Below, piece after piece: positions 3,676 through 7,493 of a stretch of 50,192 nt of DNA (position 1 is the stretch's first letter; every line of letters begins with the position of its first letter). Source of the stretch: a phage; the sequence record PZ445416.1, one strand, 5' to 3'. Made by a program: the position numbers and the translations under genes. The notes below the pieces were generated by a model. It made no database searches and had not been told where the DNA came from. It saw only the letters and a list, made by a program, of their open reading frames with translations.

Positions 3676-4788
3676 ATGAAGGCAAAGCAAAGATTCGATT
3701 CAGTAAAAATCAAGGCTCACTTTGATGATAACGGTTTTTTAGTTGACCGCCCAATCGTGGCGCGAATCGGCGCTCAGGTTTACAAAACGCCGCACGGCGA
3801 TCGAGTTGAGTTCCGTCCGGCATCCGAAGTTTTCAAGCAAGATTCCTTGCAAAGTTTTGCAGGCAAGCCGATCACAGTCGGTCACGTAACGGTGACACCC
3901 CAAAATGCTAAGGACGTTGTTGTCGGATCGTGTGCTGGCGCTGGTATTGCTTCAGGGGTTGGCGTTGAAGTTCCTTTGAGTATTTACAGCGACTACGCGA
4001 TCAGCAAAGCTAAAGCGAAGGAGGCCGGGGAATTATCTGTAGGGTATACGTCGGTAGATATTGATAAGCCAGGCTGGGGTTCAAATGAGACTGGAGAATA
4101 TATCTTCGAAGAGGATATGAAACAGGACGAAGCGCCGCCTGAAGGTTGGGTGAAATTCGACGCGGTACAGACTAATATCAAGGTCAACCATATTGCCCTA
4201 GTTTTTAAAGGTCGTGCGGGAATTGCTAAATTAAATCTTGATGCCGAACAGGAGTTCCCGTATGATAATAACGTTCAATTAACTAACGAGGACAAGCAAA
4301 TGAAAAAAATTAAGATCGACTCAGTTGATGTGGAAGTAACCGAAGACGTTGCGAACCATATCGAAAAATTAACCGCGCAGATTGCCACCATTCAGGGGAA
4401 AGCTGATGGCTTCGAAGCTGAGCGCGATGCGCTGAAGGTTAAGGTTGACTCTCTGCCGGAACTTGTGAAGGCCGAGGTAGAGAAGCAAAAAGCCGATGCC
4501 GCCGCACGCGCAGAAGTTACCGCAGTAGCAGAAACCGCAGGCGTCAAACATGATGGTCTTGATATCAAAGACGTCAAGATTGCCGTAGTTAAAGCCATGC
4601 TTGATAAAGATGTTAGTGAAAAATCAGACGCATATATCGACGCTATGTTTGATGTTGCTAAAGATTCTGATATCATGGCTATTCAGCGTAAAGCAGTAAA
4701 AGGCGACTCTATCGAAGGCGGTAAGCCGGAAGAGAAAAACGACGCCGCGCCTGTTACGCCAAATTCACGTTTAAGCAAAGTAATGTAA
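3676..4788 (+). CDS. putative scaffolding / prohead protein
   Basis: Start at MKAKQRF after GGAG; C-terminal half is Lys/Glu/Ala-rich and coiled-coil-like (KAEVEKQKADAAARAEVTAVAE); position before capsid genes. Confidence 0.55.
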   Translation: MKAKQRFDSVKIKAHFDDNGFLVDRPIVARIGAQVYKTPHGDRVEFRPASEVFKQDSLQSFAGKPITVGHVTVTPQNAKDVVVGSCAGAGIASGVGVEVPLSIYSDYAISKAKAKEAGELSVGYTSVDIDKPGWGSNETGEYIFEEDMKQDEAPPEGWVKFDAVQTNIKVNHIALVFKGRAGIAKLNLDAEQEFPYDNNVQLTNEDKQMKKIKIDSVDVEVTEDVANHIEKLTAQIATIQGKADGFEAERDALKVKVDSLPELVKAEVEKQKADAAARAEVTAVAETAGVKHDGLDIKDVKIAVVKAMLDKDVSEKSDAYIDAMFDVAKDSDIMAIQRKAVKGDSIEGGKPEEKNDAAPVTPNSRLSKVM

Positions 4789-4799
4789 GGGGAAATATC

Positions 4800-5276
4800 A
4801 TGGCACAAATTAATGCATCTTATCAGCGAGATATGGCGATTGCGCTTCCGGGTATGGTTGCGGATACTTCAAAGTACAATATTGACGGCGCTTGTGTCGT
4901 TAATGAAGGTGATGTTCTTGTTGGCGCTGCCGTACAGGTCGTTCAAGCTCAGGCGGTTGATGGTCATAAGTTGGTTAAGGCTCTTACTACCGGAACCACT
5001 CCTTACGGCGTGGCAATCCGATCTCACTGGCAGACTGTTAACGCTCAAAATCAGATGGTTTACGAAGATGGCGGCGCTATCAACGTGATGACTTCAGGCC
5101 GAGTATGGATGCTTTCCAAATCCACCGAAGCACCAACTTTCGGCTCTGCCGTTAAACTTGATGTTGATGGTCAGGAAAAATCTGATGGCACGATCGAAAC
5201 AACCTGGACCTACGCTGGCGGTTGGACTAAATACAAAGATATTCAGCTTGTTGAGGTTCAGTTGCATCAACTGTAA
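4800..5276 (+). CDS. capsid-associated protein, paralog A (decoration-like)
   Basis: 158 aa; shares the motifs YNIDGACV, GAAVQVV and GTTPYG with the downstream ORF. Confidence 0.5.
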   Translation: MAQINASYQRDMAIALPGMVADTSKYNIDGACVVNEGDVLVGAAVQVVQAQAVDGHKLVKALTTGTTPYGVAIRSHWQTVNAQNQMVYEDGGAINVMTSGRVWMLSKSTEAPTFGSAVKLDVDGQEKSDGTIETTWTYAGGWTKYKDIQLVEVQLHQL

Positions 5277-5292
5277 TTAGCGTTTAATATGG

Positions 5293-5324
5293 GGACTATC
5301 CTTTTTTGGATAGTCCTTTTTTTA
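5293..5324 (+). terminator. rho-independent terminator
   Basis: GGACTATCC, loop TTTTTT, GGATAGTCC, then TTTTTTT. Confidence 0.7.
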
Positions 5325-5337
5325 TGGAGAAATCATT

Positions 5338-6105
5338 ATGGCTTACGAAAATTTAATGTTGCGCCCGGCGTGTCCGGGAAATCTTTCTGATACTTCAACC
5401 TACAATATTGATGGCGCTTGCGTGGCTCAAGGTGACATTGAGTTCGGCGCGGCGGTTCAGGTTGTCGGCATCGTTGATGGTGTAAAAGTCGTCAAAGTAC
5501 TTTCTGATGGCGGGACTCCTTACGGTATCGCTTTCCGTTCTCAATATGAACACCTGAGCGGTAAAATTCTCGACGGCGAAGTTTGCAACGTCGTTTCTCA
5601 CGGTCGCATGTGGGCGCTTACTTCTCTTGATGAGGCTCCCGGCTTGTTCTCAAAGTTGCAGTTTGGATCTGGTGGAGTTGTTACTGGTGGGTCTGGTTCC
5701 GCAGGATGGACCTTTGCTGGCGGCTTTGTTAAGCACGAAGACGGGCACATTATTGAGGTTCAGGTGAAACAAAATGCTTTCATCGTTCCACCGCCGCCGC
5801 CCCCTGTTGTTCTTGTTGAGTCCGCTACAATCACCACTGACAAGGAAAGTCCTCAACCAAACAATGTTACGATCCAGTGTGTAGCTAATGCTCTTCCGGC
5901 TAATGCAACCGATAAGACTGGTAAATGGTCAATCGACGCTACCAATATCGCCACTGTCGATCCGGACTCAGGTCTTGTAACTCCCGTTGGTGGAGAGGTA
6001 GTCGGTGATTTCAATATTACCTGGACGGCTAACGATGCCAGCAAGACGACGGCAACCATTGCTTATCGCGTAGAAGCAGTGCCAACGCCAGAGGTTGATG
6101 CATAA
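5338..6105 (+). CDS. capsid-associated protein, paralog B with C-terminal Ig-like extension
   Basis: 255 aa; N-terminal 150 aa paralogous to 4800-5276, then a PPPPPP linker and a beta-rich domain resembling bacterial Ig-like (Big_2) folds. Confidence 0.5.
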   Translation: MAYENLMLRPACPGNLSDTSTYNIDGACVAQGDIEFGAAVQVVGIVDGVKVVKVLSDGGTPYGIAFRSQYEHLSGKILDGEVCNVVSHGRMWALTSLDEAPGLFSKLQFGSGGVVTGGSGSAGWTFAGGFVKHEDGHIIEVQVKQNAFIVPPPPPPVVLVESATITTDKESPQPNNVTIQCVANALPANATDKTGKWSIDATNIATVDPDSGLVTPVGGEVVGDFNITWTANDASKTTATIAYRVEAVPTPEVDA

Positions 6106-6126
6106 CATAAAAACACTTTGACGCTT

Positions 6127-6141
6127 TAACAAAAAGTGCTA
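6127..6141 (-). promoter_or_regulatory. isolated Box-A site (reverse orientation) before major capsid gene
   Basis: Minus strand TAGCACTTTTTGTTA between paralog B stop and terminator 6150-6177; no -10 at the cassette position. Confidence 0.45.
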
Positions 6142-6149
6142 TTATTGAA

Positions 6150-6177
6150 GCCGTGAACATAATCACGGCTTTTTTAT
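6150..6177 (+). terminator. rho-independent terminator
   Basis: GCCGTGA, loop ACATAA, TCACGGC, then TTTTTTATT. Confidence 0.7.
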
Positions 6178-6196
6178 TAACTACGGAGAAGTAATC

Positions 6197-7156
6197 ATGA
6201 CTACTAAAAAATTTGATGAAGCAGATAAAAGCAATGTTGAAATGTATCTGATCCAGGCTGGCGTAAAACAGGATGCAGCCGCAACGATGGGTATCTGGAC
6301 CGCTCAGGAACTACACCGCATCAAAAGCCAGTCCTATGAAGAAGACTACCCGGTAGGATCAGCTTTACGCGTATTCCCGGTTACAACCGATCTTTCTCCG
6401 ACTGATAAGACGTTTGAATACATGACCTTTGATAAGGTTGGTACTGCTCAGATTATCGCAGACTACACCGACGATCTTCCGCTGGTTGATGCCCTGGGTA
6501 CTTCTGAATTTGGCAAGGTGTTCCGTCTTGGTAACGCGTACCTGATCTCAATCGACGAAATCAAAGCGGGTCAGGCAACTGGTCGACCGTTATCGAACCG
6601 TAAGGCAAATGCGTGCCAGTTGGCGCATGATCAGCTTGTTAACCGCCTGGTGTTCAAAGGTTCCGCGCCGCACAAGATTGTGTCCGTGTTCAACCATCCG
6701 AACATCACCAAAATTACCTCTGGTAAATGGATTGATGTATCGACCATGAAGCCGGAAACTGCGGAAGCTGAGTTAACTCAGGCGATCGAAACCATCGAGA
6801 CGATTACTCGTGGTCAGCACCGCGCAACCAACATCCTGATCCCGCCTTCCATGCGTAAGGTTTTGGCGATTCGTATGCCTGAGACAACCATGTCTTACCT
6901 GGACTATTTTAAGTCTCAGAACTCCGGTATCGAAATCGACTCTATCGCAGAACTTGAGGATATTGACGGAGCAGGAACCAAAGGCGTACTGGTGTATGAA
7001 AAGAATCCGATGAACATGTCCATCGAGATCCCGGAAGCATTTAACATGCTGCCAGCACAACCGAAAGACTTGCACTTTAAAGTGCCTTGCACCTCTAAGT
7101 GTACTGGTCTTACAATTTATCGCCCGATGACTATTGTCTTAATCACTGGCGTGTAA
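6197..7156 (+). CDS. major capsid protein
   Basis: 319 aa, strong RBS, flanked by rho-independent terminators on both sides (high-expression unit), position after scaffold and decoration genes. Confidence 0.7.
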   Translation: MTTKKFDEADKSNVEMYLIQAGVKQDAAATMGIWTAQELHRIKSQSYEEDYPVGSALRVFPVTTDLSPTDKTFEYMTFDKVGTAQIIADYTDDLPLVDALGTSEFGKVFRLGNAYLISIDEIKAGQATGRPLSNRKANACQLAHDQLVNRLVFKGSAPHKIVSVFNHPNITKITSGKWIDVSTMKPETAEAELTQAIETIETITRGQHRATNILIPPSMRKVLAIRMPETTMSYLDYFKSQNSGIEIDSIAELEDIDGAGTKGVLVYEKNPMNMSIEIPEAFNMLPAQPKDLHFKVPCTSKCTGLTIYRPMTIVLITGV

Positions 7157-7205: not shown

Positions 7206-7493
7206 ATGGCTAAAGAAAAAACTGTTGTTATCGTAAACGTTGGTGTAGCTCTTCAGATGTTCCGTCTTGAAGATGGTTCCTTTGCTAAAGTTCTTCCAGA
7301 TGAAGAGGTCACGCTTCCGGCGTCCGTTCTTGATTTGCCTGGCCTGCGTTGCTTAATTGCTCGCGAAGAAATCGAAGTTAAAGACGACAGTGCAACCAAC
7401 CGCAAAATCCGCGCTGAAATGGCAAAGATCACTAAGCCAGATCCGTGGGATAGCAAAAGCGTTAAAGAGCTTGAGGACGGCGGCGAATATTAA
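7206..7493 (+). CDS. hypothetical head-associated protein
   Basis: 95 aa, RBS GGAGAAA, own terminator at 7501-7525. Confidence 0.5.
   Translation: MAKEKTVVIVNVGVALQMFRLEDGSFAKVLPDEEVTLPASVLDLPGLRCLIAREEIEVKDDSATNRKIRAEMAKITKPDPWDSKSVKELEDGGEY

Follow-up and report, generated by a model that had tools for sequence, protein, structure and literature searches.

What do two adjacent open reading frames in a phage genome encode when the second repeats the N-terminal domain of the first and then adds a run of prolines and a C-terminal extension of its own? This question is raised by positions 4800 to 6105 of a 50,192-base stretch of phage DNA (record PZ445416.1), which was analyzed as a whole and is hereafter called the window. 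A preliminary description, made from the letters of the sequence, had read the two genes, here named A and B, as tandem paralogues for capsid decoration proteins, in which a duplication was followed by the gain of an Ig-like domain of the kind that binds surface glycans. It had also placed a strong terminator between them.

The window is a T1-like (Tunavirus) genome, 92 to 98% identical to those of T1, ADB-2, and IME167; over its full length, identity to T1-like genomes is 92 to 95%. Its first letters are the ATG of the large terminase gene terL (1-1584), and it runs collinear to complete genomes of T1-like phages (about 49 to 50 kb); apparently, therefore, it is an entire genome that has been rotated to begin at terL. 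A search of the whole window detected no tRNA genes. Within the A/B region, DNA identity to phages ADB-2, pSf-2, and T1 is 97 to 98%.

Genes A and B lie on the plus strand amid genes for head assembly. By their Pfam and PHROG matches, the neighbors encode a Mu-F-like head morphogenesis protein and a head maturation protease (DUF2213), with a major capsid protein (MCP) of the HK97 type downstream. Directly upstream of A is the head maturation protease/scaffold gene (3676-4788, plus strand; Pfam DUF2213, 7.9e-26; PHROG 530, "head maturation protease," 4e-108), whose orthologue in the T1 record is named capsid maturation protease. Downstream of B is the gene for the MCP, the binding partner of A and B (6197-7156, plus strand; Pfam PF09950, 1.9e-62; PHROG 264, 1.1e-104), which is the orthologue of T1 gp47. 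The order protease, A, B, MCP is identical in 10 related lineages.

Gene A (4800-5276, plus strand) encodes 158 amino acids and is the orthologue of T1 gp49 and FCWL1 gp28, the major cement (decoration) protein. It matches the Pfam family PF22758, Phage_cement, described as "Structural cement protein (E217 gp24/Pam3 gp6)," with an E value of 2.5e-30 and 105.9 bits, relative to a cutoff of 27. Gene B (5338-6105, plus strand), the orthologue of T1 gp48 and FCWL1 gp29, encodes 255 amino acids and is preceded by a ribosome-binding site, GGAG, at 5326-5329, which lies 8 nt 5' of the ATG and is annotated at the matching place in T1. Three parts of B can be distinguished on this strand. The first is an N-terminal cement domain paralogous to A by BLASTP (residues 1-147, 5338-5778), which matches PF22758 at 8.3e-18 and 65.3 bits and is the counterpart of residues 2 to 153 in the model of T1 gp48. 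The second is a linker of six prolines (residues 151-156, 5788-5805; CCA CCG CCG CCG CCC CCT). The third is a C-terminal Ig-like domain (residues 157-255, together with the stop codon 5806-6105), so that 99 residues follow the prolines, in agreement with the roughly 100-residue extension first proposed. Residues 176 to 240 match Pfam PF02368, Big_2, with 31.7 bits against a gathering cutoff of 22.8 (E 1.5e-07), which bears out the Ig-like assignment. B also matches the Ig-domain families PHROG 215 ("structural protein with Ig domain"), PHROG 1280, and PHROG 341, and InterPro IPR003343 is given in the T1 record. Moreover, A and B each match PF23982 (XM1_gp53) and PHROG 1989. A single-sequence AF2 model of the whole of B had a mean pLDDT of 35.7 and was discarded.

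The identity of the pair is decided by solved structures of very close relatives. A differs at 1 of its 158 residues (V87I) from the cement chain common to PDB entries 9KMG, 9KMH, and 9KZJ, where it is called "decoration protein / cement protein II." For B, the count is 10 of 255 residues relative to T1 gp48 (9KZJ chain H, "BIG2 domain-containing protein"; 96% identical) and 15 relative to the FCWL1 "decoration protein gp29" (9KMH). Chains this close to A and B have been built into cryo-EM maps of the T1 and FCWL1 virions. Both proteins can therefore be placed in the virion, contrary to the refuting condition set in the preliminary description (neither protein in virions), and its label of capsid decoration proteins holds. 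GenBank already uses this label too: "capsid decoration protein" for the orthologue of A and "IgG-domain-containing decoration protein" for that of B, in the re-annotated T1 record as in the FCWL1 record.

The head of T1 has been resolved by cryo-EM at 3.5 Å (Chen et al., Viruses 2025;17:351, PMC11945409). The capsid is a T=7 shell with 415 copies of the MCP gp47, covered by 80 homotrimers of gp49 and 60 heterotrimers made of two gp49 subunits and one gp48 subunit (PMC11945409). A beta-tulip fold like that of TW1 gp56 and lambda gpD is adopted by gp49 and by the first 153 residues of gp48, of which residues 2 to 153 were modeled. The N-terminal arm of gp49 is embedded in the inner capsid surface, and gp48 has no embedded arm (PMC11945409). 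The C terminus of gp48 (residues 154-255) appears as a weak, flexible outward protrusion, for which an AlphaFold3 model was presented and of which the authors wrote that it "may assist T1 adsorption" (PMC11945409). For trimeric cement proteins, PMC13033339 refers to the structure of FCWL1 (Cai et al., Structure 2025;33:663).

For T1 and FCWL1, whose proteins are 96 to 99% identical to those encoded here, the presence in virions, the fold, the kinds of trimer, and the numbers of copies are thus shown. From the near-identity to solved chains (1 of 158 residues different for A and 10 of 255 for B), we assign the beta-tulip fold to A and B. Trimers at threefold as well as quasi-threefold axes are shown for T1, and they are assumed for the window phage from the 96 to 99% identity. 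The Ig-like domain of B is likewise expected to be exposed on the capsid surface, by homology to the protrusion of T1 gp48. Simple arithmetic on the T1 trimer counts gives about 360 copies of A and about 60 of B per head.

As a whole, and with all its inferred steps included, we assign a probability of about 0.93 to the reading of A and B as the cement pair of a T1-like siphophage. In this arrangement, A would be the major subunit, forming beta-tulip trimers at every threefold and quasi-threefold of a T=7 HK97-fold capsid and clamping neighboring capsomers. B would be the minor paralogue, whose cement domain replaces a single A subunit (giving two A and one B) in 60 trimers out of 140, so that about 60 flexible Big_2 Ig-like domains per head would be displayed on proline-rich stalks. 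Judging from the counts, the 60 heterotrimer sites would be the quasi-threefolds next to the pentons, and this placement is probably correct because there are 5 × 12 = 60 such sites and five gp29 chains in 9KMH, and because, of the six trimers depicted around a hexon and a penton in Fig. 2A of the T1 study, two are heterotrimers, the legend giving two heterotrimers per hexon. Also, the N terminus of B is about 5 residues shorter than that of A in the alignment, consistent with the lack of an embedded arm in gp48.

Comparison with known systems puts the T1 group apart. The nearest relatives differ little. T1 gp49 and gp48 match A and B in length (158 and 255 aa), in gene order, and in the intergenic terminator, which is identical, and they differ from A and B by point substitutions alone (1 in A and 10 in B), mostly in the cement domain of B, so that no structural or functional difference is expected. 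FCWL1 gp28 and gp29 (PDB 9KMG and 9KMH) are orthologues as well, with 1 difference in A and 15 in B, and the FCWL1 terminator differs by one base in its loop region. More distant are the cement proteins E217 gp24 and Pam3 gp6, which have the Pfam family PF22758 in common with A and B, and PDB 8hdt, "Cement," which is a weak sequence match. TW1 gp56 and lambda gpD are stated to be analogous to the T1 cement in fold and threefold binding (PMC11945409 for the fold), although lambda gpD lacks an N-terminal arm embedded in the inner surface as in T1 gp49 (PMC11945409). TW1 gp56, Sf11 gp40, lambda gpD, E217 gp24, and Pam3 gp6 are each a single cement protein that forms beta-tulip homotrimers only, whereas the T1 group adds a second, Ig-carrying paralogue that forms heterotrimers.

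For the Ig-like domain itself, the T1 authors draw a parallel to T5 and crAss001 (PMC11945409). T4 Hoc and T5 pb10 resemble B in that an Ig-like domain is displayed outward on a capsid-binding module. Unlike B, Hoc and pb10 are monomers at hexamer centers and are not paralogues of cement proteins. Ig-like decoration of the Hoc/pb10 type has been linked with the idea of "bacteriophage adherence to mucus."

What follows A in related phages offers a wider view of the same position. A tblastn search with B returned 630 phage records, of which 177 cover at least 80% of B. In the T1 group, the slot holds a cement domain, PPPPPP, and Big_2, the linker being present in the T1 and FCWL1 orthologues. 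Phunderstruck has a protein of 331 aa composed of a cement domain, PPPPHH, and two Big_2 stretches (1501-2496 of the extracted locus), in an open reading frame that includes an X and stops 36 nt short of where the linear record finishes. BrunoManser and orkinos carry a cement domain and Big_2 without a proline linker. K50 and UTK0007, also without a proline linker, carry a cement domain and a C-terminal domain of about 100 aa that has no Pfam Big_2 match; that of K50 can be aligned to B's Ig domain. In LL5, the slot is filled by an Ig-less second paralogue of the cement protein, 146 aa long (2506-2946 of the extracted locus). Rogue1 has a 481-aa collagen-repeat protein without a cement domain (NC_019718.1, 9564-11009), and EC3a and the Yersinia phage YP10S2 have nothing in the slot. 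The Rogue1 protein, which has long Gly-X-Y repeats (Pfam Collagen, 3.3e-27), is annotated as a "tail fiber protein," but its placement within the head module suggests a possible head fiber.

With this range of slot contents in hand, the role of the Ig-like domain can be weighed. In the reading that we prefer, the putative adhesion domain would give the virion a weak, reversible adherence to surface polymers of the host or the environment. Binding to glycans or to the host surface is, at present, a suggestion, made by the T1 authors with regard to adsorption. The most serious competing explanation is that the domain has no adhesion role and is a feature of structure or assembly, its display in about 60 copies being neutral for finding a host. 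It might, for example, steer B to the penton-adjacent class of trimers, add stabilizing contacts, or serve as a solubility aid. The density of the T1 Ig domain is weak and not resolved (PMC11945409), and relatives exist whose paralogue has no Ig domain (LL5) or that lack B altogether (EC3a and YP10S2), both of which would suit such a role. Substitutions in B point the same way, as 8 of the 10 relative to T1 and 11 of the 15 relative to FCWL1 fall in the cement domain. This distribution gives no hint of a ligand-binding surface under diversifying selection. However, a flexible domain that is carried on a proline stalk, without ordered contact to the T1 shell, is poorly placed to stabilize that shell, and the cement domain alone should set the site of B. 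Moreover, the slot holds other modules suited to outward display, namely, the two Big_2 domains of Phunderstruck and the collagen-repeat protein of Rogue1, which suggests that surface display is the property under selection. We therefore regard a purely structural role as doubtful, though not negligible, and retain surface adherence as the working model.

The second question posed by the locus is how B is expressed. Between A and B, the terminator proposed in the preliminary description corresponds to a hairpin at 5291-5318, whose 11-bp stem (GGGGACTATCC/GGATAGTCCTT, with 5 GC pairs) closes a loop of 6 nt and leads into a run of seven Ts; the whole element, at 5291-5325 on the plus strand, is identical in T1, where it is annotated as a rho-independent terminator. 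Its centroid energy is -17.4 kcal/mol, with a z-score of -3.4 against shuffles. Termination here is predicted, as annotated in T1. A hairpin with a run of 4 to 7 Ts occurs at the matching position after A in 10 of 10 lineages, the stem sequences differing, and it is present also in the lineages that lack B (EC3a and YP10S2). The 61-nt spacer between A and B has no promoter-like site.

A second terminator-like hairpin (6147-6172) with a T-run lies between B and the MCP gene (6147-6178, plus strand), at an annotated terminator of T1. Upstream of the MCP gene is a sigma-70-like promoter, TTGACG-16-TATTAT with a TG (6118-6145, plus strand), which has 10 of 12 matches and is conserved in sequence in seven lineages; a promoter is annotated at the matching place in T1. 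This promoter directly abuts the hairpin at 6147-6172, and its predicted start, at about position 6152, lies inside the 5' arm. RNA initiated there would consequently lack the full stem, while transcripts arriving from upstream would terminate. A related observation concerns a recurrent cassette, made up of a GC-rich hairpin, six or seven Ts, a ribosome-binding site of the form AT(T)GGAG(A/G)AA, and a start codon, which is found after terL, A, the MCP gene, and a 95-aa open reading frame at 7206-7493. The T-runs of these four copies start at 1621, 5317, 7185, and 7518, and a variant follows gene B at 6172.

Given the two bracketing terminators and the spacer without a promoter-like site, we infer that expression of B would depend entirely on transcripts that read through the post-A hairpin. 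Such read-through would keep the B transcript below that of A, would fit the 60 versus 360 copies, and would help set an A:B ratio of about 6:1. That ratio could equally be set by translation or assembly. A "transcripton" organization, which the layout seen here matches, has been described for the late/head-gene region of T1 and TLS (PMC11447400), and the presence of the hairpin in relatives without B marks it as a general feature of this head-gene layout and not as a B-specific device. The idea of the hairpin as an attenuator dedicated to B is weakened, since the hairpin follows A in phages that have no B.

An alternative is that the hairpin between A and B acts mainly at the RNA level, as a stabilizer of the mRNA 3' end or a barrier to processing that protects a heavily used A message. 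The recurrence of the hairpin, T-run, and ribosome-binding site after terL, the MCP gene, and the next open reading frame, together with the hairpin after A in phages without B, is what such a general function would lead one to expect. Nevertheless, the 4 to 7 Ts that directly follow each hairpin are the signature of intrinsic termination and not of a simple barrier to decay, and annotators of T1 and TLS treat these hairpins as terminators (PMC11447400 for TLS). The two roles are also mutually compatible. Stabilization as the main function thus seems unlikely to us, at perhaps one chance in a few, and a leaky terminator remains the preferred reading.

The MCP promoter also contains a member of a dispersed repeat. 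The 18-mer TTTAACAAAAAGTGCTAT occurs in 15 copies with at most 3 mismatches in the window, 6 of them exact, compared with 0.05 expected by chance; T1 has 13. The copies, each of which is at a gene boundary, are located at 6125-6142, 9888+, 26695+, 27161-, 29671-, 34446+, 36608+, 37108+, 39157+, 39923+, 40128+, 41313-, 42053-, 43073-, and 49610- (signs denote strand). In the early arms, the 18-mer is followed, at a distance of about 20 nt, by a -10-like TAT(T/A)(A/G)T box that has no -35 consensus, and the copy at 6125-6142 forms the spacer of the TTGACG-16-TATTAT promoter, in an orientation opposite to that reported for TLS. We considered the 18-mer as a new regulatory element and rejected this idea, because the element has already been described for TLS and T1 (PMC11447400): the 21-nt repeat aaATAGCACnnnTTGnTAAAA, reported for TLS, T1, Rtp, and Rogue1 (PMC11447400), has TTTAACAAAAAGTGCTAT as its reverse complement.

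How the pair arose can be approached from the similarity of A and B. The two open reading frames share a domain of about 145 aa, close to the 150 first estimated, with 62 identities in 143 aligned residues (43%; A 15-157 and B 11-145; BLASTP E = 2e-33), and an identity of this extent establishes that the paralogy is real. The motifs YNIDGACV and GAAVQVV are found in both proteins, as had been described, while the third, GTTPYG, is exact in A alone and reads GGTPYG in B. Short motifs can recur in unrelated neighbors by chance or composition, but beyond this general caution nothing speaks for such an explanation, which is already refuted by the E value of 2e-33 over 143 residues, the common Pfam and PHROG families, and the common fold in solved structures.

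The course of events after, or including, the duplication is less firmly drawn. The cement domain of T1-type B is 45% identical to A-type proteins, compared with 32 to 35% to B of other subfamilies. In a neighbor-joining bootstrap tree, the A-type proteins cluster, and the deep nodes do not separate one duplication from two. Ig motifs shared among the relatives (DKTGxW and W-ANDxS) favor a single fusion event. The order put forward in the preliminary description, duplication and then gain of the Ig domain, is plausible given the Ig-less second paralogue of LL5. A recent gene conversion between A and B was considered and set aside, the sole repeat at the DNA level being 56 nt at 79% identity over the YNIDGAC motif.

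Gene A is itself closely conserved. Among the window phage, T1, and FCWL1, it is almost invariant, synonymous sites included, and the adjacent B and MCP genes are more changed. Relative to T1, A (158 codons) has 3 synonymous differences and 1 nonsynonymous difference, compared with 20 and 10 for B (255 codons; the nonsynonymous ones mostly in the cement domain) and 23 and 3 for the MCP gene (319 codons). The invariance of A may reflect a recent recombinational sweep or a constraint at the nucleotide level.

The identity and arrangement of the A/B pair are already known to the field from the cryo-EM work of 2025. What is new here is minor: the variable slot after A, the positionally conserved hairpin that follows A, and the bracketing of B by two terminators. 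It is nonetheless worth noting that a tool-free reading of raw sequence recovered a real and recently solved phage architecture. T1-like phages are notorious laboratory contaminants of great stability (PMC13164509), and the cement layer, with its two components, enters into the structural account proposed for this stability. The pattern of a fixed slot whose payload varies between conserved flanking terminators suggests that B could serve as a natural display scaffold, which would be an incremental advance.

Finally, we tentatively propose a broader idea, which we hold to be possible and somewhat improbable. The slot after A in Drexlerviridae may be an exchangeable site for capsid display, occupied by a cement paralogue with one Ig domain, with two, or with none, by a collagen-repeat protein, or left empty. 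A leaky upstream terminator would fix its expression at about one-sixth of that of A, and the downstream terminator together with the promoter would act as an insulator that restores full expression of the MCP. If this is true, phages of the T1 type would possess a display cassette of 60 copies, both natural and tunable, whose payload adapts the capsid to different environments.
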